Source: Tubulanus polymorphus (taxonomy: Eukaryota > Animalia > Nemertea). From it: a stretch of DNA of 64,000 bases. Of the stretch, positions 6,286-45,996 are shown one piece after another; the first letter of the stretch is position 1; each line of letters begins with the position of its first letter. Where the stretch lies: positions 15,038,150 through 15,102,149 of the forward strand of contig NC_134026.1 of NCBI RefSeq assembly GCF_964204645.1, written 5' to 3'. The position numbers and the translations under genes are program-made. The notes beneath the pieces are model-generated. The model made no database searches, had not been told where the DNA came from, and was given only the letters and a program-made list of their open reading frames with translations.

Positions 6286-6437
6286 AGTAATAGGGAATAT
6301 GTTGCTCTAGATCAAAGATGGAAAGGTCGAGTGAGTAAAAAATGAAAAATAAATTCTCGCACACTCGAATTTATTTTTCATTTTCTACCCACTCAACCTC
6401 TCAACCTTTAATCTAGAACAACATATTACCTATTACT
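6286..6437. repeat. 152-bp terminal hairpin (71-bp stem, 10-nt loop)
   Basis: 6286-6356 is the reverse complement of 6367-6437 with 9 mismatches. Confidence 0.9.
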
Positions 6438-6729
6438 CTTAAAATATTCATATTTTAAAAGTGTGAGTAAAGTGTTAGCATAATAATCTAGAAAAATAAG
6501 ATCAAATATAGATTTCGAATAATAAAATATCAATTTTCAATATAAAAAGTGTGAGTAAAGTGCAAACATAAAAAAATGCGAGAAAAAGTAATGATTAATT
6601 AACGAGTTGTTAGAATTGAAATCAATTTTTAAACATAAAAAGTGTGAGCAGAGTGTGATTGAAATAATTCATATTTTAACATTGAATATTTATATTTGAA
6701 TGAGTTTTAATATAAGTTTTGTTATTAAA

Positions 6730-7367
6730 ATGAAGAAGGAAGAAGAAGAACCCAACTTCAATATCGAAATCAATGAAGCCAATAAATTATTTTCACAGTT
6801 TAACATTAGAAATTATATTTCAGCAACAAATTTAGTGTCCGCAAGGTATTATAAAATTGATAACATTACTATGATTAATCAAATATCATCAAATGAAACA
6901 TATTTAATTACTGAACTAATTGATACGTTTGATAATGGTGTAAAAAATCCTAAAATGTTCAATACAGTTTTAAATTTTAAAGGAACTTTAGATGAAAACA
7001 TAATAAATATTCTTAAAACTCCTTTCAATGAAAGAAAAAGTGATATAATACTTTCAAAAATAATAATGATTTGATTAACTTAAGAATTGAAAAAAGACAA
7101 TTATATTATTTCAATTTTGATAATAAACAAATTATCTATAATGAAAATTCATCAAATATTGGAATTCAATGTGAATTAGATAATGAAAAATCATTCAAAG
7201 ATACAGGAACTCAATGTAACTTAAATGATGAATTTAGAAAATTCAATCCTAATGAAAAAGTGTATTGTTATTGCGGAGGTAAATATTTGAAATCACATAA
7301 ATCAAAGCATTATCAGACAATTAAACATATCAATTATGAAAATAATAATAAATATATATTGAAATAA
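6730..7367 (+). pseudogene. Probable single ~210-aa ORF with C-terminal CxC..H....H zinc finger, split by a 1-nt frameshift
   Basis: ORFs 6700-7074 and 7071-7367 join if one A is added to the A run near 7056-7060; motif VYCYCGGKY...HKSKHYQTIKH. Confidence 0.6.
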
Positions 7368-9898
7368 GATTAAGCTGTATGTTTCAAATATATAGTAGTT
7401 AAAGCATGGAGAAATTAGTTAATGAATAACTGTTAGGTAGTAAGTTTAATTGTTATTTGATTTGAAACATATAAAAGTTTAATATTTCTAAGATATTAAA
7501 TATTTATCAATTTGATAATTTTTTTCTTAAATAAATGTATGATTTCAACATACCAACTGGAAGTAGTGATTTGAAGCATTATTTCATTTTTTACTCACTC
7601 GACCATTCGACCTTTGATCTAGACTAACATATTCCCTATTACTAACGTTCTGAAGACCACGTGAAGCATCGCCGGCTGGGTTTAATTCCGTCGGGACATG
7701 GCGCCATATTTCTGGACTGCTGCCACTTCTAATGAAGTTGACTCTGTTCGCCACAATTGTCTGGTACCTGGCGCTCGTGTTTGAAATGTAATGTAACGCA
7801 TTCTGACTGTCGGTCAAGTATACAATCTTGTCAATGGGCAAAGTCATGTTTTCGACAATCATTTTGTTTTGTTGGACAGCTAACTTGGCAGCGGTAAGCT
7901 CCAAACGTAGAACTGTAATCTTTTTCCAGGGACACATTCTAGGCTTGGACACCACTATACGACTTGTAGCTTGCCCATATTTGTTGACCGAAGATATGTT
8001 ACGACACCATATTGCCTCTCGCTAGCGTCAGCAAAGTGATGTAATTCGTATTTCCACGAGCCACCGGCGATTTCGGGCTTGATACATCTTGGCAATTCTA
8101 ACTTCTCCAAAATCTTAATGCCACGTTTCCATTGATCCCATTTTCTTTTTTTGCACGTCATTAATTTCATTATCCCAGCCAAGTCGAGATCGACTTAACT
8201 CCTGCAGTAAGAGTTTAGCAGACAATAAGCCTAATGGGTCGTATATTGATTCGACGAATGCCAAGATTCCACGACGAGTGTACGCGCTTTCCTTGAGTGA
8301 AACTAGAAACTCGAGGTATCACGTTGTACGTTCCACTGTATTCCAAAAGCATTTTCTGTAGGTAATTCATGCTCCAATGTAACATCGGTTATTGATTCTG
8401 GGCGGGAATCCTTAGGCAAATTCTTAATGACCACTATGCTATTACTAATCACATCGTGCAGACGAAATCCACCCTCCTTGCACAGTTCAATTACTCCGCG
8501 ACACAAAGCTGCCGCTCCCAGATCATCGTCATCAGTAGATCAGCAGACTGTACTTAATTGGGGATGCGTTTCTTGCTGTCTTGAGTAGTGTCACCGTTTG
8601 GAAACCACCAAAAACGCAAGGAGTCTCTCTGTTCCGGTACGCGGTACGCTGCAGTGGTAATACATGGCTTCAATATCAGCCGTGAATGCTAACCTTTCCT
8701 TGAACCGTAACAACACGCCAAACAAGTCATTAGTGAGGTTGGGAGTAGGTAGCAATGTATCGTTCAGGCTTACTCCAGAGCAACGCGCCGAACAATCGAA
8801 GACCACTCGAATTTCGTTCTTCCGAGGATGGTAAACACCGTGGTGAGGGATACACCAACAAGTTGACACCATGAACTCAAATTCGAGGACTCGTTTTGCA
8901 TAACCCTTTTCAAGCAGCTTGTTCATGAATGTAGTGTAGTCGTCGGCATACTTACAATCACCGTCCATTTTTCTTCTTACAGATGACAAACGTTTCAGAG
9001 CAGCTGATTTATTTGGTGGCAACATTGTTTCCTCTGATTTGAATGGCATACACAGCAGCTCATATTTTCCATCAACTTTCTTAACATTAGAGGTCAAATC
9101 TCTTAGGAACAACTTGTCCTCTACCGACAACTGTTGCTTGTCATCAGTAAGTCATTCCGGGATATCGATATCTACAGTCTTCTGAACCAGTTCAACTAAA
9201 AGCTGCACGTTGTTGACCACATGCCGGGTTCGTGCAGAGACGTTGGCAGAGCCAGCGTGAGCGAGATTCTATAAAAGCCAACCCAACCTTGTTTTCACGG
9301 CATGCGGGTTTCCATCTGGACCCGTTCTAATATCAACGAGTAAGTACGCGTCGGGCACATTATTTCCCAGCAGGAGCATTATGTCAGCATTCACTTCATT
9401 CAGTTCGACATCTACGAGTTGAGGCCATTTCTCGATGTCACTTTTTACAGGAAAACGGTCCTTTCCAACAGGGATACTTTCTATTGAATACGTTGTAGGT
9501 AGCCGCATCGGCGTGCCACCCTTTAAGAATCTGTAATCCTTATACGACGTCACCAAATTATAGCCTTGAGGAGATGACGTAGTTCCAATGTCTAGTGTGC
9601 GCTGTCGCCCATTGCATCCCAACACATGGATCAATCGACTAGATCAAAGGGTCATGCTGCTACCGAGTTTCTAAAGATGCGTACACGATTAGTTCCTCGC
9701 CACTGTTGACGTGTGAAACCATCACCGGGATGACAGCAGTGGTACAAGTAGAACCAGCAACCTCGTGATCGGTGGTAGTTGAAGTCGGAATAAGGCTGAA
9801 AGCGTCCGATGATCTGTTGGGTTGGTTCTCTCTGTCGGTGCTCAATGTGTTTAAGTTGTCAACTTTTGATTGTTTGATGGGCTTAAATACGTGAAATA

Positions 9899-28100: not shown

Positions 28101-28482
28101 AATTCTCCATTCAAAAAAGAATTAAGTAATTTTACAAATTATATCATTCAATTAAATAAAAGTTTAATATTTTAAAAATGATTAATCAAATAATTGTTAT
28201 ATTAAAGTTTTTTATTATCTAAAAAGTTAAAATCAATGAAAAGATAACGGATTTAAATCAAATTATTATTAAATTAAGTTAAATGATTTGTTTTAGAGAT
28301 AATTGAATAAATAATTCATTTAAATCAAACAATTGTTCAATCAAATGTTTGTGATATTTAAATAGTTAAAACCGATGATAAGATAATTGATTCTTAAAAC
28401 AATATTATTAAATTAAGTTGAATTATAGGCATATCAGTTAGTCATTTCGGATTCTTGACATTTAAATTAACTGTTTATAGAA

Positions 28483-29881
28483 TCTTTCGACGCTGTTTCC
28501 TTGTTCACAAATATACCATTGGAACCAACTCTCAATTTACTCCCGGACTCCAATCTTGATCTCCCAATTCCCGTAGAATGTTTACTTGAACTTTTGGAAC
28601 TCTGTACAACCAATCTATATTTCCAATTCCAAGACAAATTCTATGAACAAATTTTCGGTTTCGCTATGGGTAACCCATTATCCCCCATTTTGGCTAATCT
28701 TTTTTCATTGAACACTTTGAATCCGAAATTCTCCCTAAGTACGCTGGCTCTAAACCTAACTTTTGGATTAGATATGTTGATGACATTCTGTGCTTAGTTT
28801 CTGATAATTTTGATCTTACCTCTTTTATCGACTTCATCATCTCCCAATATCCATCTTTGAAATTCACTTTTGAATGGGAACAAAATGACCAAATTCCGTT
28901 TTTAGATGTTCTAATTCACAATAAATTTTCTCATTTGATTTTCTTAGTCTACCGTAAACCGATCAACGCCGAGGCATACCTTCACTTCTTTTCGTTTACT
29001 GCTAAATAAATCAAAATTGGTCTTGCTCAAGGCCTCTTTCTACTACGGATCTACGATGAAACCTTCCTTTCGGCTGAATTTGAACATATATCCAACTCTC
29101 TTAGAAAATTGGCTAACCCTGATCACATTTTCAGAATAGCTATTTCTAAGGCTAAACGTACTTTCTTCAATTCTAAACCTCCAGAAAATTAAAAAAACCC
29201 ATTTCAGAGTTCATTGTAGTTCCGTATGTACCTGTTTTGGAAAAGTTTCGTCACTCTCTCCCTTTATTGGATAAACAAATCATTTTCACGTATGAAAACA
29301 AAATTATTAAGACTTGGGTTAAAAACAATCAATCTTAACCATTGGACTGCGGAGTTAACAAAATTCCTTGTTTTGGCTGTGATAAAATTTACTTTGGAGA
29401 AACTGGTCGTGATTTAAAAACTCGAATTTCGGAACACAAAAAGGATATATCATAAATCAAAAACCGGCTAGTGGCGTAGCCAATCACGTTTGGAACACTG
29501 GTCATCGTTTTAATTTTGATAAAGCCGAAATTATTCATACTTCCAGCAATTACACTAAACGCCACATAGTTGAGTCTGCCCTAATTACCCGTCACTCAGA
29601 TATTAGTACCAATTTAAATAATGGCTTTTCTCCGCATAATTCCCTTCTTTCTAATTATATTACTTCATGCCTTGCCAAACACTAAATATTTACTCACTCA
29701 CCAATTTACTCAATTAACGTGTCCTCCTCTGTATATATACCCCTGTTTTTAATCTATATCTCACACCTGACGATGATCTCTAGGGTGAGATCGAAACGTC
29801 GTGTCTTTTATATATTTTTGATTGAATAAATAAATTCTGGTTTTTAAATTCTTTTAATCTGTAAATAGTGGGATTTTATCT
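28483..29881 (+). mobile_element. 5'-truncated Penelope-like retroelement (RT + GIY-YIG), decayed
   Basis: SFDAVSLFTNIP, FYEQIFGFAMGNPLSPILAN, WIRYVDD, IPFLDV, VYRKP; endonuclease KIPCFGCDKIYFGETGR.LKTRISEH. Confidence 0.9.
29763..29804 (+). ncRNA. Minimal type I hammerhead ribozyme
   Basis: Stem I ACAC/GTGT, core CTGACGA, stem II GATCTC/GAGATC, GAAA, minimal palindromic stem III, GTC cleavage triplet; lies in the Penelope 3' repeat. Confidence 0.85.
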
Positions 29882-30399
29882 TAAAATAAACCCAACCATT
29901 ATTATTTTCTTATTTAAATTATCATAGAATTTCGGTAATTTGTTAAAATTTAATGTTTCTAAATCCAAAGTTTCTATTTTACCATAACCTAATTTATTAT
30001 TATAGATATTATAAAAACTATTAGATGGTATGGGAAGTGTACAATATTCTACGATCATTTTAGGGCAAGGAAGTGATCTTATTTTTCCAAGTTTTGTTCT
30101 GAAATCAGAATGAATTATATCTATATTAAATTCATTACAAATTTTATAAAACTTTGATAAATTGATATTATTATCTAATTCTTTAAAATATCTAGATCCT
30201 GGCAAAGGGGTCTCTAATTCATTTAATATTAATCTTATTTGAAAATAAGTATGGAATCTAAATACACTTTGAATTAATTTATATTTAGAATTATTCAAAT
30301 GATCATTCCAACTAATTCCACATCCTGTTGTTGCACAATAAACTGCAAAATTTAATTGGTTCTGCCAATATTTCATATTAGATTTTAATAACCATTGTT
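29876..30399 (-). pseudogene. C-terminal part of a Polinton-associated ORF (WQNQLNFAVYCATTGCG), split by the 30400-42033 insertion
   Basis: Joins ORF 42034-42256 in frame across the TSD: KDEKQ|WLLKSNMKYW. Confidence 0.8.
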
Positions 30400-30803
30400 A
30401 GTAATAGGGATAATGGGCTTTCATACCAAAGGTCGAACGGTCGAGCCCATTAAAAAACAAAATATTAAAAGTAATTAAAAACTATAATATATTTTCATAA
30501 CCGCGTGCATTTTATATTAAAACTAAATATTTATTCTAAGATATCAATAATATAAAAAGCATATTGTATTAAATCAATTGGTCGCTCCACTTCGCTACCG
30601 CTCCGCTCCGCGACCAATTGATTTAATTACAATACACAAATTCAAATAATCAAATATATTCAAATGATAATAATTATTCTATTATTCAACTGAAATGCAC
30701 GCGGTTATGAAAATATATTATAGTTTTTAATTACTTTTAATATATGTTATTAATGAACTCGATCATTAAACCTTTGATATGAAAGCCCATTATCCCTATT
30801 ACT
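30400..30803. repeat. 404-bp imperfect terminal hairpin (mirrored at 41630-42033)
   Basis: AGTAATAGGGATAATGGGCTTTCATA at 30400 and its reverse complement ending at 30803; inner stem attaaatcaattggtcgc / gcgaccaattgatttaat. Confidence 0.9.
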
Positions 30804-30883
30804 CTTAAAATATTCATATATATGAATAACATTTAAATCATTGAACTTCTAAAATCAATTTTAATAAAAAATATAGTATTGAA

Positions 30884-31144
30884 ATGGAAGCAAATAAGTA
30901 CTACTGCCCAACATGTTATATCGATATAGATAAATCCCAAAAAGCAAGACACAATAAAACTAGAACACATTTAGAAAATAAATTGAAACTAGAGTATTCA
31001 GAACAGTTAACAAAAGGAAAGAAATTTATTGAATTATGGAACACTGATCCAAATAATGAACAATACGTTGAGGATACGATGTTTATACTAGAAAATCATT
31101 CTATTTTAGCCTATATACATTCAATGTACAGAGCTATAGAATAA
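30884..31144 (+). CDS. Small zinc-finger protein, 86 aa
   Basis: YYCPTC......KARHNKTRTH; open in both arms. Confidence 0.7.
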   Translation: MEANKYYCPTCYIDIDKSQKARHNKTRTHLENKLKLEYSEQLTKGKKFIELWNTDPNNEQYVEDTMFILENHSILAYIHSMYRAIE

Positions 31145-31829
31145 ATCTATAAATTCACAGCTGTTACAGTTGTTACTATAACGACGAGACATTATGACAC
31201 GTCATAATCAGAAACGTGTAGAATATTCTAGAAAAGGCGCGCCGGAACTAGATGACGTGGCATAATCAACGACGTGTTCATTCTAGAAATCGCCCCGGAA
31301 ATGGACATATGCTGTAATATTGTGCTCAGGATATTCTATCTTTCGAAACGAAATAAGGAGTTTATAGTATACAATTATAAATCTAAATGTTTGTTATAGT
31401 TATTAAGGTTATTAAATATGAAACCTTTAGATATATTTAAGTGTATTTAGTATATCTTTTAGATAGCTAGAGTTACCGCTAATATCTTTTAGATTAATAA
31501 AACGCCATACGCATCAAGAAGCGATAGAGAAACTCAAGATACTCTTTCTGCCTGAGGAATCAACAGCAATGGATATCAAACCAATAGAATCACCAAAAGA
31601 TCAACGAAGAAACTATATAAGAATTTCAAAAACATTAAGACTCCAATGATTAAGTTTAACATTTGTTGATGTAGTTAAATATTTACCAGCAATTGAAAAA
31701 ATGTTTGTAATTATAAATTGTATTTATAGAAATCAAATGATGTATTAGAAGAAATGACTGAACAACTTGTATAATGTATTGTGTAAATCTGATTTGTGAA
31801 TTTTTATGTTCAGTCGTTTCTATTATGTT

Positions 31830-32140
31830 TAACGCATGCGCATTAAGCAAAACCGGCCATAAATGGCCGCATGTGACACATGTAACGCATGTGACGAGGG
31901 ACATGAATGCGTTCGAATTTTCTATGTTCAGTTGTTTCTATTTTACAGAATTTATAGAATGAATATACAATTATGATTAGCGCATGCGTATTGATCAAAA
32001 CCGGCCATAAATGGCCGCATGTGACACATGTAACGCATGTGTTGTTTCTATTTTACAGAATTTATAGAATGAATATATAATTATGAATAACGCATGCGCA
32101 TTAAGCAAAAACGCTCCTGTATGTCCGCATGTGACGCGGG
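31830..32140. promoter_or_regulatory. Triplicated GC-rich motif block upstream of the HNH gene (candidate enhancer or origin)
   Basis: TAACGCATGCGCATTAAGCAAAACCGGCCATAAATGGCCGCATGTGAC in about 3 copies; includes CC(A/T)6GG and GCATGCGC. Confidence 0.45.
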
Positions 32141-32284
32141 TATTGTAACTGGTATTATTTAGATATCAAGGAATCGAAACAACTTATCAAAAGCAACGAA
32201 GAATGAAAAAGGATGACGTTAGTCGAAGAAATGGAAGAGGATTATAAAATATTAACCAATTTAGTAAAAAAATACGTATAATAA

Positions 32285-32959
32285 ATGGAACCAGAACAAC
32301 CACAAATTATCAATATTACAAATAACACTGGCGTTATAAACATATACTACAAGAAGTGTTCTAAATGTGAATTAGATAAATCATTAACAGAATTTAGTAA
32401 GCGTAAGATTAGCAAAGATGGTTTTCAATATTATTGTAAAACTTGTATTAAACTATATACCAAACAATATCGAGAAGATAATAGAGAATCTTATAATGAT
32501 TATATGACAGAATATATGAGAGAAAGATATCAAACAGATCTTAATTTTAGATTGAAACAATGCTTAAGATCTAGATTAACACAATTATTCAACAAAGAAA
32601 CACATTCAGAAACATTATCTAATTTATTGGGTTGTTCAGATGAATTTCTCAAATCATGGATTATATTTCAATTCGATGATAAAATGAATATAGATAATTA
32701 TGGGGATTATTACCATATTGATCACGTGTTACCAATATCTAAATTTAACATGAATGATGAATACAATAAAAAACTTATTTGGAATTGGAAAAATTTAAGA
32801 CCTTTAGAAAAGAAAGAAAATCAAATCAAATCTAATAAACTAGATTTACAATTATATTTGGAACAGTTGAATAAAGCAAGGAAATTTATTGATTGGTGGA
32901 ATAGTAACCCACAGAATGAACAATACGTTGAGGAATTTGATATCAAGGATCCGAAATGA
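32285..32959 (+). CDS. HNH-family endonuclease with N-terminal Cys4 zinc module, 224 aa
   Basis: KKCSKC....L.EF......DG....CKTC; YHIDHVLP...WKNLRPL...EN..KSNK. Confidence 0.8.
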   Translation: MEPEQPQIINITNNTGVINIYYKKCSKCELDKSLTEFSKRKISKDGFQYYCKTCIKLYTKQYREDNRESYNDYMTEYMRERYQTDLNFRLKQCLRSRLTQLFNKETHSETLSNLLGCSDEFLKSWIIFQFDDKMNIDNYGDYYHIDHVLPISKFNMNDEYNKKLIWNWKNLRPLEKKENQIKSNKLDLQLYLEQLNKARKFIDWWNSNPQNEQYVEEFDIKDPK

Positions 32960-33261
32960 CTTATCTGGACAGTTATAGTTACTGCTCCTAATAGATAGAC
33001 AATAGTAGTGAGATATCAAATAGAATTCAAATAAAATATATTAAAAAAACAATAACTTCAACTAGCTAATGAATTCTATTATATTTTTAATATTTTCTTT
33101 TCAAAAGAGAATACTTTATATTTTGAATAGATTCAAATAGAAATTCTTTAAATTCAAATAGCTAGTATCAGTAGTCAATACTAGAATTCTTTAACTTTAA
33201 CTAGCTAGTATCATTTGAAGAATACTTATAATACTATTCTTATTAAATTTCTCTAATATAA

Positions 33262-33864
33262 ATGTCAAAGAAATCTAATAAGGATAGTATTGATATTGAA
33301 AAAACATTAGATGATTTGGGTATTAGTGATAATAAAGATACAGTTGTTTCTAATTCTATTCAAGTTAATAACAATATAGATTATGAATACTATTTATATT
33401 GTAAGCATCATCTTGAATTATTAATTGCTGGTGGAAAAACTAAAGAGTTTTTAACTAAGACTATTACTTTTCAAGAATTAGATGCTATGAAACCCGATCA
33501 AGTAATAAAATATTTTAAGATTTATGAAGAGGCAAGATTATCTAAAATAAATGATTCTATTTCTAATGGTATTGTCAAATGTTATTCTAAGTTATGTAAC
33601 CAGTTAATACCAATTGATGATGAAAATAAATTATATAATGATTTGAAAAATGACTATTTAGTTATGACTGAATTACAAAAATGGGTTGGATATGCTTCAT
33701 TTCAATTAGGATCGGTTATGACATTGATTTCTACTGGAGTTATAACATTTTCGAATATCAAACCTATGGAATATAAATCAGGTAAGAACGAAACAGATGT
33801 ACTACAACAAAACGTCGAAACAGAAAATGAATCAGAACAAAAATTAACTAAAATAAATGAGTGA
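33262..33864 (+). CDS. Polinton-associated hypothetical protein, 200 aa
   Basis: Intact ORF in a tightly packed cluster with integrase and ATPase. Confidence 0.7.
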   Translation: MSKKSNKDSIDIEKTLDDLGISDNKDTVVSNSIQVNNNIDYEYYLYCKHHLELLIAGGKTKEFLTKTITFQELDAMKPDQVIKYFKIYEEARLSKINDSISNGIVKCYSKLCNQLIPIDDENKLYNDLKNDYLVMTELQKWVGYASFQLGSVMTLISTGVITFSNIKPMEYKSGKNETDVLQQNVETENESEQKLTKINE

Positions 33865-34051
33865 TGGAGTTAAGAAAAAGCCTAGATCTGAGAAACAAAT
33901 TAAATGGGCAAGAGAATTAGGTAAAAGATCTTCAGAATCAAAAAAAGCTAAGAAAAAGAAATTAACTGATATAAATGAATCACCTGATATTGATTCAAAT
34001 AATAATCCATCTAATTCTTCTAATGCTGGAAGTAATTATAAATTAAAGTGA
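33857..34051 (+). pseudogene. Deletion-truncated copy of the 114-aa protein
   Basis: About 205 bp missing near 34045 relative to the right arm. Confidence 0.75.
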
Positions 34052-35084
34052 AGTATCATATTCTAACGTTTCAGAATTATGGAATAAAATTAAATCTGAT
34101 AATAATATAAAATATAGTGAATTAAAATCATGGTTACAAAATCAACCCACATATAATATTCATAAAAAGATGGATAAAAAATATTTAACAAGAAAAGTAA
34201 TGGTTTCATATATTGACCAACAATGGCAAGCTGATTTAATTGACATGAAAAACTTAGAAGAATACAACAAAGGATATTTCTGGATACTAAATGTTATAGA
34301 TATATTCAGTAGATACGCATGGAGTATCCCGATTAAAAATAAAACTGGTATAGAAGTTACAAATTCTTTCAAATTAATATTTAAAGAAGCTATCCCAGAT
34401 AAAATACAATTTGATGAAGGTAAAGAATTTTATAACAAACATTTCAAAAAACTATTATCTGATAACGATGTAGAATATTTTTCAACACATTCAGATAAAA
34501 AAGCATCTGTTATAGAAAGATTTAATAAAACATTGAAAACTAGAATGTGGAAATATTTTACTGCTAATGAAACATACAAATATATCGATGTGTTAGATGA
34601 TTTAGTGAAAGGTTATAATAATTCTAAACATAGTTCTATAAATATGAAACCTATACAAGCTAGAAAAGAAGAAAATTCAGAAATAGTTTGGAATAATTTA
34701 TATGGTGCGTTTGTTACACATGATTTTGGAGAACCTAAATTTAAAATAGGACAACATGTTAGAATTTCTAAATATCGAAAAACATTTTATAAAGGTTATA
34801 CCCCTAATTTTACTGAAGAAATATTTAAAATTAAAAAGATAATATCAACTAAACCATTTGTTTATAAATTGTTTGATTTAAAAGATGAAGAAATATTAGG
34901 TTATTTTTATGAACAAGAATTATCATTAGTACCAAATCCAGATGAAATAGAATACAAAATAGAAAAGGTATTAAAAACTAAAACATTACGCGGTAAGAAA
35001 TATTCTCTGGTGAAATATAAAGGATATGATGATAAATTTAATGAATGGATTTTATCTAGTAAAATTAAAAGAATAAATGAATAA
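34047..35084 (+). pseudogene. Polinton rve integrase, left-arm copy lacking its start
   Basis: Matches 37142-38227 except that the native start is removed by the deletion. Confidence 0.85.
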
Positions 35085-35688
35085 AGATTTGTTTATATTT
35101 GAACCACATAATATGTTAGTTACTGGAGTTACAAATTGTGGTAAAACACACTTCATATTATATTTATTAGAAACTATTTATCAGAATCATTTTGATAATA
35201 TAATATTATTCTGTCCTACATATGAAATGAATAAAACATATAATAGAGATATAGTTAAGATAAAAAAGTTTATTATATTAGACCCTAAAACAGTAAAAGG
35301 AAATTTAGATAATTGTATAAAAATTGCATTAGATATTTATAAAGGATCTAATACATTATTTATTATTGATGATTGCGCAAATTTACATGATTCTAAAATT
35401 AGAGAAAGTGAGTTATGTTATTTAGCTTTCTCTGGTAGACATTTTGGGATAACAACATGGGTTTTAAATCAGAAATATAATTCAATTGTGAAAGATTTTA
35501 GAGAGAATATAAGATTTCTAGTTTTATTCTACAACAAAGATAAAAAATCTATGCAACAATCATTGGAAGAAAATCAAATTATACCTACTGAATTACATGA
35601 TGAATATATGAATAAATTAAAGAATAATAAAGGTTCAAAATTATTAATGAGATTACAATTTCCCTATGAATATAAATTTATAAAATAA
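35077..35688 (+). CDS. A32/FtsK-HerA-type DNA-packaging ATPase, 203 aa
   Basis: Walker A GVTNCGKT, Walker B LFIIDD, SGRH, LNQ, REN motifs. Confidence 0.9.
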   Translation: MNKDLFIFEPHNMLVTGVTNCGKTHFILYLLETIYQNHFDNIILFCPTYEMNKTYNRDIVKIKKFIILDPKTVKGNLDNCIKIALDIYKGSNTLFIIDDCANLHDSKIRESELCYLAFSGRHFGITTWVLNQKYNSIVKDFRENIRFLVLFYNKDKKSMQQSLEENQIIPTELHDEYMNKLKNNKGSKLLMRLQFPYEYKFIK

Positions 35689-36006
35689 AATCCTAATTCA
35701 AAATATTATAGAATTCACTGTATACTGATGGATGAGTGGATGAATTGGATGAATTGGATGAGTGGATGAATGGATGAGTGTAATAATATATATATTTTAC
35801 TTTTTAACACATAAATTGGAAGAATAGTATGAGTATAAATACAATATTTATATTCTTTATTAAATTTAACACAATATATATATATATATATATATATTAT
35901 TAAAATAATATTTAAATATAATATAAAATTGATAAAATAACTTCAAATCAAACTCTTACTGTTTTAAAAATAAAAAACATATGTAAATTATATATTATTA
36001 CACTAT

Positions 36007-36810
36007 AAATGTCATATAATAATAAATATATTTTTATAAAATAATAAAATGATAAATAATAAAATGATAAATATATTTTTATATAATAATAAAATGATAA
36101 ATAATAAATGTCAGATAAATAATAAAATGATAAATGTCATATAATAATAAATATATTTTTATAAAATAATAAAATGATAAATGTCATATAATAATGAATA
36201 TATTTTTATAAAATAATAAATATATTTTTATAAAATAATAAAATGATAAATAATAAATGTCATATAATAATAAATATATTTTTATAAAATAATAAAATGA
36301 TTAATAATAAATGTCATATAATAATAAATATATTTTTATAAAATAATAAAATGATAAATAATAAATGTCATATAATAATAAATATATTTTTATAAAATAA
36401 TAAAATGATAAATAATAAATGTCATATAATAATAAATATATTTTTATAAAATAATAAAATGATAAATAATAAATGTCATATAATAATAAATATATTTTTA
36501 TAAAATAATAAAATGATAAATAATAAATGTCAGATAATAATAAATATATTTTTATAAAATGATAAAATGATAAATGTCATATAATAATAAATATATTTTT
36601 ATAAAATAATAAAATGATAAATAATAAATGTCATATAATAATAAATATATTTTTATAAAATAATAAAATGATAAATAATAAATGTCATATAATAATAAAT
36701 ATATTTTTATAAAATGATAAAATGATAAATAATAAATGTCAGATAAATAATAAAATGATAAATGTCATATAATAACAAATATATTTTTATAAAATAATAA
36801 AATGAGAGAT
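36007..36810. repeat. AT-rich 54-bp tandem array
   Basis: Unit aaatgtcatataataataaatatatttttataaaataataaaatgataaataat (e.g. gtcata at 36421 and 36475). Confidence 0.9.
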
Positions 36811-37116
36811 AATAAAATAATAAAAAGATAATATAATAAGCCAGAATTTTCTAGCTTATTATATATATAATATATATGATGTATATTGATATATCTTATA
36901 ATAAATAATATTTTAATGTAAAAATTTTTACATTTAATATTTTAATTATAGAATATCAATATACATCATATATATTATATATATAATAAGCTAGAAAATT
37001 CTGGCTTATTATATTATCTTTTTTTATTATTTTATTATCTCTCATTTTATTATTTTATAAAAATATATTTATTATTATATGACATTTATCATTTTATTAT
37101 TTATCTGACATTTATT
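36731..37116. repeat. Central loopless palindrome, the symmetry axis of the element (36924|36925)
   Basis: aatgtaaaaa|tttttacatt at the apex; bulged AT-rich segment beside it, near-perfect stem further out. Confidence 0.9.
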
Positions 37117-37141
37117 ATGTGGTTCAAATATAAACAAATCT

Positions 37142-38227
37142 TTATTCATTTATTCTTTTAATTTTACTAGATAAAATCCATTCATTAAATTTATCATCAT
37201 ATCCTTTATATTTCACCAGAGAATATTTCTTACCGCGTAATGTTTTAGTTTTTAATACCTTTTCTATTTTGTATTCTATTTCATCTGGATTTGGTACTAA
37301 TGATAATTCTTGTTCATAAAAATAACCTAATATTTCTTCATCTTTTAAATCAAACAATTTATAAACAAATGGTTTAGTTAATATTATCTTTTTAATTTTA
37401 AATATTTCTTCAGTAAAATTAGGGGTATAACCTTTATAAAATGTTTTTCGATATTTAGAAATTCTAACATGTTGTCCTATTTTAAATTTAGGTTCTCCAA
37501 AATCATGTGTAACAAACGCACCATATAAATTATTCCAAACTATTTCTGAATTTTCTTCTTTTCTAGCTTGTATAGGTTTCATATTTATAGAACTATGTTT
37601 AGAATTATTATAACCTTTCACTAAATCATCTAACACATCGATATATTTGTATGTTTCATTAGCAGTAAAATATTTCCACATTCTAGTTTTCAATGTTTTA
37701 TTAAATCTTTCTATAACAGATGCTTTTTTATCTGAATGTGTTGAAAAATATTCTACATCGTTATCAGATAATAGTTTTTTGAAATGTTTGTTATAAAATT
37801 CTTTACCTTCATCAAATTGTATTTTATCTGGGATAGCTTCTTTAAATATTAATTTGAAAGAATTTGTAACTTCTATACCAGTTTTATTTTTAATCGGGAT
37901 ACTCCATGCGTATCTACTGAATATATCTATAACATTTAGTATCCAGAAATATCCTTTGTTGTATTCTTCTAAGTTTTTCATGTCAATTAAATCAGCTTGC
38001 CATTGTTGGTCAATATATGAAACCATTACTTTTCTTGTTAAATATTTTTTATCCATCTTTTTATGAATTTGATATGTGGGTTGATTTTGTAACCATGATT
38101 TTAATTCACTATATTTTATATTGCTATTATCAGATTTAATTTTATTCCATAATTCTGAAACGTTAGAATATGATACTTCACTTTCTGGGTTATAATATAA
38201 ATCTCTTAAATATTGTTCTTTTTTCAT
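37142..38227 (-). CDS. Polinton/Maverick rve integrase with C-terminal chromodomain-like region, 361 aa
   Basis: DDE residues in WQADL, QFDEG, VIERFN; PKFKIG..VRISK; YKIEKVL...LVKYKGY....NEWI. Confidence 0.93.
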   Translation of the reverse strand: MKKEQYLRDLYYNPESEVSYSNVSELWNKIKSDNSNIKYSELKSWLQNQPTYQIHKKMDKKYLTRKVMVSYIDQQWQADLIDMKNLEEYNKGYFWILNVIDIFSRYAWSIPIKNKTGIEVTNSFKLIFKEAIPDKIQFDEGKEFYNKHFKKLLSDNDVEYFSTHSDKKASVIERFNKTLKTRMWKYFTANETYKYIDVLDDLVKGYNNSKHSSINMKPIQARKEENSEIVWNNLYGAFVTHDFGEPKFKIGQHVRISKYRKTFYKGYTPNFTEEIFKIKKIILTKPFVYKLFDLKDEEILGYFYEQELSLVPNPDEIEYKIEKVLKTKTLRGKKYSLVKYKGYDDKFNEWILSSKIKRINE

Positions 38228-38233
38228 CTTATT

Positions 38234-38578
38234 TTAATCCATTAATAATAATTTAGATTTAGTTTCATTTGATTTATTTTCTGGTATGATAGGTTTATCA
38301 TCGGAATCATATTTATCATCAGATTTGAATTTTGATTTATATATTACACCGGATAATATAATAACTGTTACTAATCCAATTGTAATATATAATTTATAAT
38401 TACTTCCAGCATTAGAAGAATTAGATGGATTATTATTTGAATCAATATCAGGTGATTCATTTATATCAGTTAATTTCTTTTTCTTAGCTTTTTTTAATTC
38501 TGAAGATCTTTTACCTAATTCTCTTGCCCATTTAATTTGTTTCTCAGATCTAGGCTTTTTCTTAACTCCATCACTCAT
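38234..38578 (-). CDS. Basic 114-aa protein with one predicted TM segment
   Basis: KKPRSEKQ..WARELGKR; hydrophobic LYITIGLVTVIILSGVIY. Confidence 0.7.
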   Translation of the reverse strand: MSDGVKKKPRSEKQIKWARELGKRSSELKKAKKKKLTDINESPDIDSNNNPSNSSNAGSNYKLYITIGLVTVIILSGVIYKSKFKSDDKYDSDDKPIIPENKSNETKSKLLLMD

Positions 38579-39171
38579 TTATTTTAGTTAATTTTTGTTC
38601 TGATTCATTTTCTGTTTCGACGTTTTGTTGTAGTACATCTGTTTCGTTCTTACCTGATTTATATTCCATAGGTTTGATATTCGAAAATGTTATAACTCCA
38701 GTAGAAATCAATGTCATAACCGATCCTAATTGAAATGAAGCATATCCAACCCATTTTTGTAATTCAGTCATAACTAAATAGTCATTTTTCAAATCATTAT
38801 ATAATTTATTTTCATCATCAATTGGTATTAACTGGTTACATAACTTAGAATAACATTTGACAATACCATTAGAAATAGAATCATTTATTTTAGATAATCT
38901 TGCCTCTTCATAAATCTTAAAATATTTTATTACTTGATCGGGTTTCATAGCATCTAATTCTTGAAAAGTAATAGTCTTAGTTAAAAACTCTTTAGTTTCC
39001 ACCAGCAATTAATAATTCAAGATGATGCTTACAATATAAATAGTATTCATAATCTATATTGTTATTAACTTGAATAGAATTAGAAACAACTGTATCTTTA
39101 TTATCACTAATACCCAAATCATCTAATGTTTTTTCAATATCAATACTATTCTTATTAGATTTCTTTGACAT
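38571..39171 (-). pseudogene. Frameshifted mirror copy of the 200-aa ORF
   Basis: 2-nt deletion in an A run near 38998 (ggaaac vs ggaaaaac). Confidence 0.75.
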
Positions 39172-39473
39172 TTATATTAGAGAAATTTAATAAGAATAGT
39201 ATTATAAGTATTCTTCAAATGATACTAGCTAGTTAAAGTTAAAGAATTCTAGTATTGACTACTGATACTAGCTATTTGAATTTAAAGAATTTCTATTTGA
39301 ATCTATTCAAAATATAAAGTATTCTCTTTTGAAAAGAAAATATTAAAAATATAATAGAATTCATTAGCTAGTTGAAGTTATTGTTTTTTTAATATATTTT
39401 ATTTGAATTCTATTTGATATCTCACTACTATTGTCTATCTATTAGGAGCAGTAACTATAACTGTCCAGATAAG

Positions 39474-40148
39474 TCATTTCGGATCCTTGATATCAAATTC
39501 CTCAACGTATTGTTCATTCTGTGGGTTACTATTCCACCAATCAATAAATTTCCTTGCTTTATTCAACTGTTCCAAATATAATTGTAAATCTAGTTTATTA
39601 GATTTGATTTGATTTTCTTTCTTTTCTAAAGGTCTTAAATTTTTCCAATTCCAAATAAGTTTTTTATTGTATTCATCATTCATGTTAAATTTAGATATTG
39701 GTAACACGTGATCAATATGGTAATAATCCCCATAATTATCTATATTCATTTTATCATCGAATTGAAATATAATCCATGATTTGAGAAATTCATCTGAACA
39801 ACCCAATAAATTAGATAATGTTTCTGAATGTGTTTCTTTGTTGAATAATTGTGTTAATCTAGATCTTAAGCATTGTTTCAATCTAAAATTAAGATCTGTT
39901 TGATATCTTTCTCTCATATATTCTGTCATATAATCATTATAAGATTCTCTATTATCTTCTCGATATTGTTTGGTATATAGTTTAATACAAGTTTTACAAT
40001 AATATTGAAAACCATCTTTGCTAATCTTACGCTTACTAAATTCTGTTAATGATTTATCTAATTCACATTTAGAACACTTTTTGTAATATATGTTTATAAC
40101 GCCAGTGTTATTTGTAATATTGATAATTTGTGGTTGTTCTGGTTCCAT
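39474..40148 (-). CDS. HNH endonuclease, mirror copy
   Basis: Same protein as 32285-32959. Confidence 0.8.
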   Translation of the reverse strand: MEPEQPQIINITNNTGVINIYYKKCSKCELDKSLTEFSKRKISKDGFQYYCKTCIKLYTKQYREDNRESYNDYMTEYMRERYQTDLNFRLKQCLRSRLTQLFNKETHSETLSNLLGCSDEFLKSWIIFQFDDKMNIDNYGDYYHIDHVLPISKFNMNDEYNKKLIWNWKNLRPLEKKENQIKSNKLDLQLYLEQLNKARKFIDWWNSNPQNEQYVEEFDIKDPK

Positions 40149-41288
40149 TTATTATACGTATTTTTTTACTAAATTGGTTAATATTTTATAATCCTCTTCC
40201 ATTTCTTCGACTAACGTCATCCTTTTTCATTCTTCGTTGCTTTTGATAAGTTGTTTCGATTCCTTGATATCTAAATAATACCAGTTACAATACCCGCGTC
40301 ACATGCGGACATACAGGAGCGTTTTTGCTTAATGCGCATGCGTTATTCATAATTATATATTCATTCTATAAATTCTGTAAAATAGAAACAACACATGTGT
40401 CACATGCGGCCATTTATGGCCGGTTTTGATCAATACGCATGCGCTAATCATAATTGTATATTCATTCTATAAATTCTGTAAAATAGAAACAACTGAACAT
40501 AGAAAATTCGAACGCATTCATGTCCCTCGTCACATGCGTTACATGTGTCACATGCGGCCATTTATGGCCGGTTTTGCTTAATGCGCATGCGTTAAACATA
40601 ATAGAAACGACTGAACATAAAAATTCACAAATCAGATTTACACAATACATTATACAAGTTGTTTAGTCATTTCTTCTAATACATCATTTGATTTCTATAA
40701 ATACAATTTATAATTACAAACATTTTTTCAATTGCTGGTAAATATTTAACTACATCAACAAATGTTAAACTTAATCATTGGAGTCTTAATGTTTTTGAAA
40801 TTCTTATATAGTTTCTTCGTTGATCTTTTGGTGATTCTATTGGTTTGATATCCATTGCTGTTGATTCCTCAGGCAGAAAGAGTATCTTGAGTTTCTCTAT
40901 CGCTTCTTGATGCGTATGGCGTTTTATTAATCTAAAAGATATTAGCGGTAACTCTAGCTATCTAAAAGATATACTAAATACACTTAAATATATCTAAAGG
41001 TTTCATATTTAATAACCTTAATAACTATAACAAACAGTACTTACATTTAGATTTATAATTGTATACTATAAACTCCTTATTTCGTTTCGAAAGATAGAAT
41101 ATCCTGAGCACAATATTACAGCATATGTCCATTTCCGGGGCGATTTCTAGAATGAACACGTCGTTGATTATGCCACGTCATCTAGTTCCGGCGCGCCTTT
41201 TCTAGAATATTCTACACGTTTCTGATTATGACGTGTCATAATGTCTCGTCGTTATAGTAACAACTGTAACAGCTGTGAATTTATAGAT

Positions 41289-41549
41289 TTATTCTATAGC
41301 TCTGTACATTGAATGTATATAGGCTAAAATAGAATGATTTTCTAGTATAAACATCGTATCCTCAACGTATTGTTCATTATTTGGATCAGTGTTCCATAAT
41401 TCAATAAATTTCTTTCCTTTTGTTAACTGTTCTGAATACTCTAGTTTCAATTTATTTTCTAAATGTGTTCTAGTTTTATTGTGTCTTGCTTTTTGGGATT
41501 TATCTATATCGATATTACATGTTGGGCAGTAGTACTTATTTGCTTCCAT
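41289..41549 (-). CDS. Zinc-finger protein, mirror copy
   Basis: One amino-acid difference from 30884-31144. Confidence 0.7.
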   Translation of the reverse strand: MEANKYYCPTCNIDIDKSQKARHNKTRTHLENKLKLEYSEQLTKGKKFIELWNTDPNNEQYVEDTMFILENHSILAYIHSMYRAIE

Positions 41550-42033
41550 TTTAATACTATATTTTTTATCAAAATTGATTTTAGAAGTTCAATGATTTAA
41601 ATGTTATTCATATATATGAATATTTTAAGAGTAATAGGGATAATGGGCTTTCATATCAAAGGTTTAATGATCGAGTTCATTAATAACATATATTAAAAGT
41701 AATTAAAAACTATAATATATTTTCATAACCGCGTGCATTTCAGTTGAATAATAGAATAATTATTATCATTTGAATATATTTGATTATTTGAATTTGTGTA
41801 TTGTAATTAAATCAATTGGTCGCGGAGCGGAGCGGTAGCGAAGTGGAGCGACCAATTGATTTAATACAATATGCTTTTTATATTATTGATATCTTAGAAT
41901 AAATATTTAGTTTTAATATAAAATGCACGCGGTTATGAAAATATATTATAGTTTTTAATTACTTTTAATATTTTGTTTTTTAATGGGCTCGACCGTTCGA
42001 CCTTTGGTATGAAAGCCCATTATCCCTATTACT

Positions 42034-42256
42034 ATTGTTTTTCATCTTTCAATTTTTTAAGATTAATTAAATATACATGAAATATATTTTCCATCTTTGC
42101 ATTTAAATTATTAGTTGCAGTAACATAAATATCTAAATTAATAAATGAACTTAAAACTTCATTTCTATATGAAATATCTTTATCAAAATTTATTGCAGGA
42201 ATATTATATTTAATTGATTTATTATATTGAAAAGCTTTTGGAAAACTATCTACCAT
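42034..42256 (-). pseudogene. N-terminal part of the split Polinton ORF
   Basis: In frame with 29876-30393 after removing the insertion and one TSD copy. Confidence 0.8.
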
Positions 42257-42269
42257 TTATATAATAAAT

Positions 42270-42703
42270 AAATTAATAATTTATTAATTCTTTTAATAAT
42301 TTATCTTGTTCTTCAACTGTTATATTACCATTTAAACTTATTATATAATCTAATGTATTTTTTAATTTATTAATTTCTTTTATATTATGATTTTTTCTTT
42401 ATATCTTTTTATATTTAATTTTGAACTTATGCCAGTTAATACACTTGAACATAAACCCAAAGCTCCAATTCAGATAGCTTAAGGTGTTAATGGTGAGAAT
42501 AATGCTAGAAATGTTATTACAGAACTAATTTTAACTGAACTACTAATAATAAAATAGTATATAATTTTACTTTTTAAATATTTTTTCTTTTTAAGTTTTA
42601 AATCATTTTCAAATTCTAATATTTGTTTTTCCAAATATAATTTTAATTTAGTTTTATTTATATCTAGATGAATAATATCAATATTATCAACTTTATCAAC
42701 CAT
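42270..42703 (-). pseudogene. Small coiled-coil/TM Polinton ORF, decayed
   Basis: Coiled segment then hydrophobic IIYYFIISSSVKISSVITFLALF; premature stop. Confidence 0.5.
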
Positions 42704-42722
42704 TTATTTAGAAAAGATATTA

Positions 42723-43154
42723 CTAATTAGTAAATTTATAAGAAACAAATAATACAATAACTGTTCCACCTATAATCCAAATTATTTCATATTTCTGCTG
42801 TTCACTACTTGGTGTATAATAATCTGATAATTTAGGTTTATATAGATGTAATTTTTCACGATTTGTTACTGCGTTATATAAACTCATAGCTTCGATTGAT
42901 TGAAAATCTCTATGTGTAATTTTCTGATTATATAATTCTTTATTGATGTTATCCATATAGTTTTGCCTCTTTTCCCTATATTCTTCTGCAGCTTTATTGT
43001 ATTTCTTTAATGCTAAGTTATGTCTTCTTTGTTCTCCTAATGAACTATTTTTACCAATATGCTTAAATAAATAACCACCACCTGTAAATGCTAAAGCGTT
43101 AACAATTGCCGATCCTATAATAGTTATAATTGCAGATGTAAAAAAATTATGCAT
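42723..43154 (-). CDS. Polinton-associated 143-aa protein
   Basis: GSAIVNALAFTGG.YLF, E.RRHNLAL, PKLSDYY.PS..Q.KYE and a C-terminal TM; resembles a small-ORF family I recall from invertebrate Polintons. Confidence 0.65.
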   Translation of the reverse strand: MHNFFTSAIITIIGSAIVNALAFTGGGYLFKHIGKNSSLGEQRRHNLALKKYNKAAEEYREKRQNYMDNINKELYNQKITHRDFQSIEAMSLYNAVTNREKLHLYKPKLSDYYTPSSEQQKYEIIWIIGGTVIVLFVSYKFTN

Positions 43155-43156
43155 TT

Positions 43157-43377
43157 ATATAGGAGGAATATATTTTTGTTTTTCTAAATAATCAATTGTT
43201 AAATTAGATAAAGTAACTGCTAATGTTATTTCTTAAAATATCATTGATATCAAATATATCAACATTAACACTTCCCATTTTAAATACTTTTTTGATACCA
43301 TTGAATAACCAACAGTTCCAACTGATAGTAAGGCACCATTATATAAACCAGTTATTATCCACTTATTATCACTCATT
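43157..43377 (-). pseudogene. Small hydrophobic Polinton ORF, frameshifted
   Basis: MSDKWIITGLYNGALLSVGTVGYSMVSKKYLK...LTIDYLEKQKYIPPI. Confidence 0.5.
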
Positions 43378-43749
43378 TATTAATCAAAAAAATTACCACC
43401 TTCAAAATATTTAGTTATCTTATTTATGATTATTTCAACATTTATTTCATAACTAGTTTCATTTGTATATATTTCAATTATTATTTTTTTAATATCATCG
43501 ATGATAAAATCTTTATCTAATTCATAAAATCTTAAAGATTATCTAATTAAGTCAGTAATCTTTTCTACATTATAAGTTTCTTTATTTATAGTTTTTTCAT
43601 AATCAAATGTTGTTTCATTATTAAATGCAATATTTTTGATGTGAGTTATGACATCATTAATGTGAAATTTCATTTCTTTCTCACGTTTAAAATCAAATCC
43701 AAAACATATACTCGGACCAACAGTTATATTCATTTATATAGTGATAAAA

Positions 43750-44285
43750 TTACTCTCTACATCTTATAACTAATTCATATATCACAGGAAAGTTATTCAA
43801 ATCAATGAAGTATCCTATATGATTTCTAACTTCTAATTTGAAAATATTAAATCGTGAAATACAAGGTTTGAAATCACAGTCAGCTAAATTATAATTTATT
43901 TGTGTTCCAAATTGTTTTACATTTTTCAATGGTAAGATATTTATTATACTGGAATTACAAGTTGTTTCTTTAGTTGTTTCGAATGTTTTTACAGGATCAA
44001 TTAAATTACAATAAATATAGAAATGTGTGTATCTAAATTATATAACCCTGGTTTTAAATAAAGGGGATACCATTTATTTTTAGTCTTATTAATAACTGCA
44101 AAACCTCTATGATCAATAGATTTTTCAGTTATATTATGAAAAGGATTACATAAACTAATATTTACTCATTTTAAATCTACACAATTTCTAAATTCTCTAT
44201 CTAATTGTACAAGTAAATTATGAGATTTATAATTTGTAAGTCTTCTAGAATCAACAAATATTCTATATTCTTTTAATTCAACCAC
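43750..44285 (-). pseudogene. Minor capsid (penton-like) protein remnant
   Basis: Hand translation: IFVDSRR...NPFHNI...LKPGLYNLD / FYIYCNLID...IINILPL....FG...Y...FKP...FKLEVRNHIGYFIDLNNFPVIYEL. Confidence 0.6.
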
Positions 44286-44346
44286 TATTTAGAACACAAA
44301 AAAATTACCTCGAATCACTAAAAATTAATTTTAATAAAGAAGATAG

Positions 44347-45643
44347 AATGTGAAATTTGTGGTGAACTACAAAGAAAAAGTAATATGGCTCGATATATGA
44401 AAAAACATGATGAAAATTATAAACCCCCTAAAATAAACTGCCCAAATTGTAATAAATTATTCTCAAGAAATTATGTTAAAAAACATTCAGAGAAGTGTAA
44501 AATTAATGATTCAACGGTTAATGTTGATATTAATGAAAGTAATAATAATTCTGTTGAAACTGAACCTGAAATCATTTGGAAAAGACCTTTCTTATTCTAT
44601 GATGAGAATAATATAAAAGATCATTTCTGTGAGTATTGTCGAAAAAATATAGCCCCGAAAATATAGAAGATTGGGAGAATCATCAATTTCGTAAAGTACA
44701 TATAGATAAAATTTCTAGTAAATTTGAAACAGAATTTAATGAAAGAAAAAATAAAAAGATAAGAAAAAATAAAATATGAGAAAACGTTACAAAATAATGA
44801 AGAAACACTTGAAAAGTTTGAAAAACAATATAATGAATTAGCAAGGAAAACATATTATTGTAAATATTGTAAATTGATTATTACAACAAGTAATTTAAAT
44901 CTACATAATAGAACAATAAAACATAAAGAAAACGTAAGGAAATACCAAGAACTTAATGAAAATCTATTACCAAGATATGATAGAAAAAATGCCCACAATG
45001 TATTTATGAGTACTTAAGACAAGAAGATTCTGTAATATTTTGTAATGAATGTGGATGGCAAAGAAATTTATGGGGTGATGAAAAAACTAGAGATATTCTT
45101 ATAGAACCAAAATTAAAATATCTAGATGAAATTTTTAAGATATTTTCTATGGAAGATCATACACCAGAATATAAGCAATGGCTTGAAAAAATGAAAATGA
45201 TAGAAAATAAAAATGGTGAAATAACTATGAAAGAAATAATAAAAACAATTATTCCATCAACATTTACCACAAAAGAAAAGAAAATGTATTTATATTTATT
45301 ATTTAACGATTATTATAAAAAACCTAAATTAACAAAAGAAGATATGGAAAATATAAAAGAAACATTCACAAACATATTAAAATATTATGTGGATAATAAA
45401 ATAACAGATTCAATTAATTATGAATTCTGTTTAAATAAGATTGTAAATTTTTTAAACATCGATATTATAATTCCATTTGATGAATTAACGAACAAAAAGA
45501 AACAAAGAGAGCTAGATGAAATGTGGAATAATAAAGAACTTTATTTAAATGAGAAAAATGAAATGGAAGAACCTAAACAATTAAATAAAAATGAAGAAAC
45601 CAGTAGTGATTGCGAGTATGATGATCTTGATGTGTTGTTTTAA
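44347..45643 (+). pseudogene. Multi-zinc-finger Polinton ORF, decayed
   Basis: ECEICG, CPNC..H...C, CEYC, YYCKYC....HNRTIKH, FCNECG across frameshifts. Confidence 0.55.
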
Positions 45644-45945
45644 TGGCCATAAGGTAATGTTTTTATTCCATCACCCAAAACATATCTTTTATCATCAAAT
45701 GGATTTAAACTAGTTTTTTCAACTTCATTAATGTACATCTCGTGATCTTCTGATCTCAAACAATTCATTTTGTGTTTCATGACAATTGAGTTATATAAAC
45801 ACTTTATATAATCTTGAAATACTATATGTTTATCCACCACATGGTTTGTTATTCCTTTTAACTTTTTAGCTTCATGGTATTTTGTTCTATAACTATACAT
45901 TTTACTTCTTATCCCAACAAATTCAATCATTTCATCACCCCCTAA
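45640..45945 (-). pseudogene. Protein-primed PolB, C-terminal part
   Basis: EFVGIRSKMYS, KKLKGI, K..LNPFDDKRY......TLPYGH. Confidence 0.9.
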
Positions 45946-45996
45946 TTAGGGTTTTCTGTTTCTTCACAGAAAACCCTATTGAAATTCGCGTGATTG

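Follow-up and report, generated by a model that had tools for sequence, protein, structure and literature searches.

A PolB-less, palindromic Polinton derivative inserted as a single unit in the genome of the nemertean Tubulanus polymorphus

In the window analysed here, a stretch of 64,000 nucleotides of Tubulanus polymorphus (assembly GCF_964204645.1, contig NC_134026.1, positions 15,038,150 to 15,102,149 of the forward strand; all coordinates below are those of the window), positions 30400-42033 are occupied by a mobile element that is, over its entire 11.6 kb, one palindrome integrated as a single unit. Self-comparison of the window yields two inverted alignments, 30399-34045 with 42034-38390 at 99.2% identity and 34045-35113 with 38184-37113 at 99.4%. 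The two arms, 30400-35113 and 37113-42033, measure 4.7-4.9 kb each, together make up nearly the whole element and meet at its axis. The element has AGT..ACT termini and is flanked by a direct 6-bp target-site duplication (TSD), ATTGTT, at 30394..30399 and 42034..42039; at the local composition, a match of this 6-mer by chance has a probability of ~1e-3. An initial annotation, made from the letters alone, had described near-identical arms of this size, the AGT..ACT ends and the TSD, and all of these are borne out.

The gene content was compared with that of six metagenome loci (L001-L006, all partial contigs), which were retrieved by aligning the homologue clusters of a 200-amino-acid (aa) open reading frame (ORF) of the element, and with Pfam, where the scan took in 12 of 13 element and target proteins, six ORFs of the element among them. 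From the outer ends inwards, the arms start with an 86-aa chimeric ORF (30884..31144, + strand; mirror 41289-41549, - strand) composed of a Zn-finger N-terminus and an HNH C-terminal tail: residues 11-40 match the start of L001, residues 32-54 match the L001 HNH tail, and the ORF is 62% identical over 34 aa to the tail of the element's own HNH protein; a homologue of similar length was looked for, and none was found. The next ORF, a 224-aa Zn-ribbon and HNH-like nuclease (32285..32959, +; mirror 39474-40148, -), is open in both arms and 56-59% identical to its L001 homologue. The 200-aa helical ORF (33262..33864, +), a gene of the Polinton clade with no assigned function, has eight homologue clusters at 50-66% identity and is frameshifted in its right copy (38571-39171, -); its model is of low confidence (pLDDT, the predicted local distance difference test, 61), and a fold search with it gave no match at E 0.001. 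A 114-aa ORF with a hydrophobic segment (38234..38578, -) and a 361-aa rve integrase with chromodomain (37142..38227, -; rve E 6e-9, chromo E 2.5e-4), in which D-D-E is present, are taken from the right arm, where the integrase is full length; a 206-bp gap in the left arm truncates the copy of the former (33857-34051, +) and removes the first 15 codons of the latter (34046-35084, +). Finally, a 203-aa A32-like packaging ATPase (35077..35688, +; Pox_A32 E 1e-10) lies in the left arm, the right arm keeping its first 37 bases only. The cargo proposed at the outset is thus confirmed for the integrase and the ATPase, whereas the Zn finger and HNH gave only weak Pfam matches (E 0.012 and 0.055) and the 86-aa "Zn finger" is the chimera with an HNH tail. 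The claimed absence of PolB and capsid agrees with the searches: the L001 PolB as a tblastn query gave no match within 30400-42033, nor did the L002, L003 and L004 ORFs that were used as queries for the capsid block. None of the six element ORFs matched a protease family in the general Pfam scan (no dedicated protease search was made), and the scan of the element proteins gave no match to a Rep family.

In a global alignment, the two arms differ by 15 substitutions and by gaps: besides small indels, the left arm lacks the 206 bp and the right arm 1621 bp. The larger gap corresponds to the mirror of 35108-36728, which is gone from the right arm; at a distance of 190 bp from the axis it interrupts the long symmetry, and its junction (37113..37118) has 6-bp microhomology. 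Since the symmetry extends right up to this junction, it formerly ran further. The missing mirror noticed earlier is therefore a deletion, although the TATT given as its microhomology is only part of the 6 bp. A hairpin naturally 390 bp long, with template switching at its edge, was considered as an alternative and rejected; this is possible, but the symmetry stops exactly at the microhomology. With both gaps added back, and as a matter of lengths only, the restored unit comes to 6730 bp and the dimer to ~13.5 kb. The original palindrome was thus larger than the present one, as had been supposed, although, owing to the 206-bp deletion on the left, the unit measures ~6.73 kb and the dimer ~13.5 kb rather than 6.5 and ~13 kb.

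The centre of the element is formed by a 390-bp palindrome (36729..37118; axis 36923/36924) that is 95.5% self-inverted and of which the innermost ~60 bp are imperfect. The innermost 31 bp per side hold 6 differences versus 0.12 expected (P 4e-9, with events counted by hand from the arm alignment), the next 164 bp outward only 2. Mismatches that cluster at the axis in this way point to a fold-back seeded by an imperfect palindrome of ~60 bp that was already there. AT-rich imperfect palindromes are also found directly behind the ATPase stop in L002, L003 and L004. Ahead of the axis lies a 1.2-kb ORF-free spacer of 10% GC, which contains an AT-rich tandem array (36208..36754; 54-bp period, 10.2 copies, 95% matches); a bacterial promoter scan of the spacer remained at chance level (49 versus 39 +/- 5).

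Each end of the element is itself a palindrome. The left one (30400..30803) is a 404-bp imperfect palindrome reading AGT...ACT with 78% self-identity, and the right one (41630..42033) is its exact mirror in the same orientation; the arms are identical over their first 460 bp and the terminal palindromes are unflipped. The 404-nt end is predicted to pair base 1 with base 404 in a long stem with a branched top (minimum free energy -117/-122 kcal/mol; z -37 with 10 dinucleotide shuffles and -22 with 40 shuffles). The plain open outer end that had been envisaged must therefore be replaced by a hairpin-forming palindrome, as in other members of the clade. One such member, a sibling non-autonomous element of 1.36 kb, lies at 6286..7643, with the TSD AACGTT and AGT..ACT ends; its left end is a 152-bp palindrome, and the 16 bases next to it are those that also follow the palindrome of the large element, its right end has the outer half only, and it carries a 124-codon frame of no recognised kind at 6700-7071. 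Within their first 30 nt, the large and the small element show 10 differences, of which 8 are mirrored in the inner arm. The sibling with its mirrored changes shows that the terminal hairpin is a kept feature of the clade's end and not peculiar to the PolB-less form. The stretch 26933-28423 is a relative of this sibling element (80% over 27430-27884), though decayed. Furthermore, 209 reads join sequence like 27258-27301 to 30834, which places a repeat of the 26933-28423 type just inside the end in other family members.

The sequence that was hit by the insertion could be identified. Residues 1-73 of a 442-aa ORF of L004 are encoded in one flank and residues 75-217 in the other, on the same strand and meeting at the TSD: the downstream part of the interrupted gene lies at 29876..30399 (-; residues 75-217, 59%), its upstream part at the start of 42034..45947 (-), where five more genes of the structural block and a PolB C-terminus follow. 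The flanks together with this rightward run of five L004-like genes up to the PolB C-terminus identify the target as an older, decayed Polinton of the same clade. Removal of the element thus joins consecutive parts of one protein; the ORF that the initial annotation saw restored in frame belongs to another Polinton and not to the host; a host gene as insertion target is ruled out. On the left, the target relic is truncated by a decayed reverse-transcriptase element with a putative GIY-YIG-like tail (28501-29870), of which 29495-29870 repeats in inverted orientation at 15142-15515.

The metagenome loci place the element within a known group. L001 has the order Zn finger, PolB (1241 aa), HNH, ORF200, ORF114 and integrase; L002 and L003 have ORF200, ORF114, integrase and ATPase, followed by a convergent block on the opposite strand. 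The order in the element equals that of L001 minus the PolB between Zn finger and HNH, and that of L002 and L003 minus the convergent capsid block behind the ATPase. The integrases of these three loci are 84-87% identical to that of the element, and D-D-E is present. A 414-aa protein of this block in L002 is, by its fold, a double-jelly-roll capsid protein: the model, built from 84 of 124 homologues, reaches pLDDT 91 and gives Foldseek matches to the major capsid proteins of PBCV-1 and iridovirus (E 2e-16). Sequence searches of the PDB gave no match for the capsid profile and were uninformative for PolB. The L001 PolB (337-4059, 1241 aa) has no PF03175 match and shows a weak match to Endonuclease_7 (residues 491-527, E 1.5e-4, below the curated cut-off). 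A place of the clade in the Beta PolB class, as described in the available part of PMC8502044, is probable and fits a PolB with no PF03175 match. From the gene order and the relatives bearing PolB and capsid, the unit can be recognised as the left half of a Polinton of the ordinary type. Judged from these sequences, the element is a descendant of a Polinton clade with capsid- and PolB-bearing members, and the suggestion that it is of an unknown kind is not supported. Nor is it an autonomous Polinton/Maverick: a D-D-E integrase, a packaging ATPase, AGT..ACT ends and a 6-bp TSD are present, whereas PolB and capsid are missing and the inverted arms exceed the size of Polinton terminal inverted repeats (TIRs).

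Several other observations concern these relatives. The HNH gene shifts in position and strand even among close ones (L002 1299-1811, L001 4079-4846), like a mobile homing nuclease, and a 213-aa ORF of L004 (10343-10981) is, by inspection of its P-loop, a candidate deoxynucleoside kinase. A scan of genome contigs retrieved three distant integrases (35-41%), two of which lie in misfiled Polinton-like contigs with no large palindrome. The Polinton-like gene blocks of L009 and L010 are filed under a bacterial metagenome-assembled genome and are probably misbinned eukaryotic DNA. Two pattern matches in a scan of viral contigs proved to be unrelated phage DNA.

The loss of PolB has left a junction of its own. 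It presumably lies at 30995..30997 (+), has 3-bp microhomology and is present in both arms: the 86-aa ORF follows Zn-finger sequence to ~30997 and HNH C-terminal sequence beyond. Reads that were mapped on 26000-35850 come from another sample with the same species label (run X5, of which ~12% was read); 543 of them continue from 30997 into Zn-finger sequence like that of L001, and in contigs from three runs it is HNH-type sequence that leads into 30995. Reads or contigs under the same species label thus contain the two original partners of the junction. The presence of the junction in both arms implies that the PolB deletion preceded the duplication. Besides this junction, no stop or frameshift is common to both arms, which indicates that the duplication happened while the genes were open and puts it close in time to when they were in use. 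Eight listed differences from the read majority fall on mixed codon positions (three of them third positions) and are uninformative on selection. The transitions between the arms have C/G on the left in 8 of 9 cases, and at the three differences that can be polarised (30881, 33939 and 34846) the left arm holds the derived letter, A>G or T>C, contrary to the usual AT bias. This letter bias of the left arm may be base-calling error; an APOBEC-like origin is ruled out, the three polarisable differences running the opposite way.

Read depth characterises the family to which the element belongs. In run X5, depth is 7 in an apparently single-copy bin, 313-849 (mean ~515) in the interior and ~1260 in the terminal palindrome, which gives a family depth of ~75-fold. 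Before 30400, 1235 reads have unlike flanks (agreement 0.34), which indicates that insertions at this end were numerous; the clade is abundant and inserted at many sites. Of 48654 mapped reads, 1798 are at least 99% alike, and 17 reads crossed either end of 26000-35850. Depth is 394 at 35653 and an estimated ~70 or less behind the ATPase stop, where the sequence is very AT-rich and the filter can cause dips. On balance we lean towards few near-identical copies of the exact element.

The element is best explained, in our judgement with a fair margin of doubt, as a snap-back defective genome of a Polinton that formed outside the chromosome and was probably inserted whole by a Polinton integrase. 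As in snap-back genomes, one genome end has been copied back to a near-complete palindrome. Such an element could have arisen in the following manner: (i) a microhomology deletion, whose trace would be the junction shared by both arms, removed PolB; (ii) while a helper PolB was copying by strand displacement, the nascent strand may have folded back on itself at the imperfect AT-rich palindrome of ~60 bp that follows the ATPase gene and have been extended, with itself as template, to the left end, so that the capsid block was lost; (iii) second-strand synthesis would then have yielded a duplex of ~13.5 kb whose two identical left ends would each serve as origin and as substrate of the integrase; (iv) this dimer was inserted as a unit into the older Polinton, the step to which TSD and ends testify directly; and (v) each arm gained deletions of its own, lesions that are seen today and would date from after the insertion. 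Copying and any packaging would rely on full-length relatives. Two proposals of the initial annotation are thereby upheld: TSD, ends and arms support a palindromic dimer with two integrase-competent ends that was inserted as a unit, and a satellite or defective fold-back replicon is the best reading of an element with neither PolB nor capsid. Some considerations weigh against the snap-back origin. No complete helper with ends was found, the relatives are partial contigs, and 6 of 8 scans of viral contigs yielded no relative. The X5 reads, from another sample and mostly 90-99% alike, describe the family rather than this insertion, and the axis and the right-arm junction are taken from this assembly, from whose sequence the stage as free DNA has been reconstructed. 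In addition, a fold-back rearrangement in place, soon after an ordinary insertion, would likewise be compatible with the sequence.

According to one alternative, which appears unlikely, the element belongs to an established family of satellites with a hairpin at either end, whose replication is self-primed from a hairpin in the manner of parvoviruses or poxviruses, the inserted form being a head-to-head dimer intermediate; the HNH protein or the endonuclease VII-like domain of a helper PolB would be the resolving nuclease. The 404-bp end with its predicted pairing of base 1 to base 404 would supply a paired 3' primer, so that protein priming of PolB would not be needed, and the mirroring of 8 of the 10 differences that set the large element apart from the small one, the weak Endonuclease_7 match of the L001 PolB (below its cut-off) and a centre that resembles an incompletely paired AT-rich hairpin next to a tandem array all point in this direction. 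Hairpin priming from terminal palindromes has been proposed, in the available text of 10.64898/2026.07.28.741278, for virophages as well as Polinton-like viruses (PLVs) of protists. However, the terminal palindrome is also linked to parent-type Zn-finger sequence in the 543 reads and is present in the small sibling, both ends have the same orientation with no flip form among the best-supported joints and variants listed, and a Rep/HUH gene is missing. The small share of reads at least 99% alike and the drop in depth behind the ATPase stop, for which the filter may be responsible, likewise speak against an established family. Somewhat broader is the notion, possible though doubtful, that the Polintons of this clade with hairpin-forming ends replicate via inverted dimers. 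The element would then represent an undescribed class of hairpin-ended Polinton satellites, with a 6.7-kb unit, a self-priming 404-nt outer and an AT-rich inner hairpin, integrase and ATPase of its own and a borrowed polymerase and capsid, inserted as a 13.5-kb dimer close to the length that the capsid of a helper can contain.

Improbable in our view is that an ordinary Polinton was inserted first and that its right half gave way afterwards, at the site itself, to the left half copied in inverted orientation, by fold-back of a fork at the AT palindrome and return via TIR homology. With the TIRs that the parent Polintons possess, the TSD would survive; decayed and rearranged elements abound in the region; and inverted amplification seeded by palindromes is reported as an established process in chromosomes (PMC4689423). 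Yet this route requires, at one site, both a copy tract of 6.7 kb and the loss of the entire right half, and all this before any stop or frameshift had become common to both arms. Least credible of all is an assembly artefact, produced by fold-back chimeric reads or by a wrong path through TIRs. Long palindromes are prone to error in long reads, and at all three polarisable differences the left arm has the odd letter. Against this stand the right flank, which is a unique continuation of the interrupted gene with its TSD instead of a mirror of the left flank, and the sequence that each arm holds and the other does not (206 and 1621 bp), the 206-bp piece being found in independent contigs.

Several known systems come close to the element. 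Parvoviruses and poxviruses have hairpin ends, head-to-head dimers and extended terminal palindromes. The element is similar in its extended terminal palindromes and in an imperfect AT-rich dimer junction next to tandem repeats; it differs in having Polinton genes, no Rep/NS1 or A22 gene and no visible flip-flop, so the likeness is one of resemblance only. For the protein-primed linear plasmid kalilo, Vierula and Bertrand reportedly described in 1992, to go by the title as cited in PMC11071308, a deletion derivative that forms hairpin and duplex DNA. Snap-back genomes are a known class of defective viral genomes (PMC13506859, available part), in which one end is copied back on itself, so that a helper-dependent and wholly palindromic genome with a pair of identical origins results; these genomes, like the kalilo derivatives, are free molecules, whereas the element has an integrase and is chromosomally fixed with a TSD.

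Among Polintons themselves, the Mavericks of vertebrates have TIRs of 46-1447 bp, AGT-type ends and 6-bp TSDs (PMC8097293), and Polinton TIRs are generally given as 100-1500 bp (PMC10748475), in the parts of both sources that were available. With Polintons/Mavericks (adintoviruses) the element shares an rve integrase with chromodomain, an A32-like ATPase, AGT..ACT ends and a 6-bp TSD; it differs in being a dimer of one half with no PolB, capsid or penton, in its inverted arms of 4.7-4.9 kb and in having one AGT instead of (AGT)2. Butterfly Polintons, as far as the accessible text goes (10.1101/2025.02.07.637071), have gene-bearing TIRs of ~2 kb, and PolB-less ones kept amplifying. They thus resemble the element in the duplication of core genes within inverted repeats and in mobility in the absence of PolB, but they retain a unique central region and have hexon and adenain duplicated, whereas the duplicated genes of the element are those of the integrase side. 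Upstream of Chinook salmon gh1, a ~10-kb palindrome is described as part of a Polinton-1 insertion (PMC2584663), in the text at hand a passing mention with no gene content, ends or mechanism. Halocafeteria virophages and PLVs have palindromes at their TIR tips beside the TSD, which are tied to rve integrases and the absence of pPolB and for which hairpin priming was proposed (10.64898/2026.07.28.741278, available part); these elements belong to protists and have capsids and replication genes of another kind, their palindromes measure 52 nt in the example given versus 404 bp here, and they are not dimers. Nothing closer is contained in the accessible parts of PMC6431247, PMC11296320 and PMC1864894. 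In the open literature searched, to the extent that its text was available (subscription journals, Repbase and preprint supplements lie outside), no description of whole-element palindromic Polinton derivatives as a class was found. The earlier statement that no such class has been described holds within that literature, although pieces of it are in print with the salmon palindrome, the butterfly TIRs and the protist terminal palindromes.

The replication of Polintons has been modelled from gene content and hardly observed. A snap-back dimer fixed with a clean TSD would be a record of a free, strand-displacing replication stage prone to fold-back, and the element indicates that the integrase accepts two left ends. 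A terminal hairpin that occurs throughout the clade and is kept by mirrored changes bears on the choice between protein and hairpin priming. Should the axis turn out to be multi-copy, or the ends to flip, the element would be a hairpin-ended satellite with direct bearing on Polinton replication. Elements of this kind collapse in short-read assemblies and fail filters that require PolB plus integrase, and may therefore be common and overlooked.

Other Polinton remains are scattered over the window, whose transposon content points to a probable animal host. A decayed PolB fragment at 61682-63368 (-) has an intein-like insert at a catalytic motif (Pfam Intein_splicing E 0.005, below the cut-off), where the matching L001 PolB has no insert. 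At 22076-22405 lies an isolated relic of a gene of the Polinton structural block, 55% identical to a 485-aa ORF of L004.

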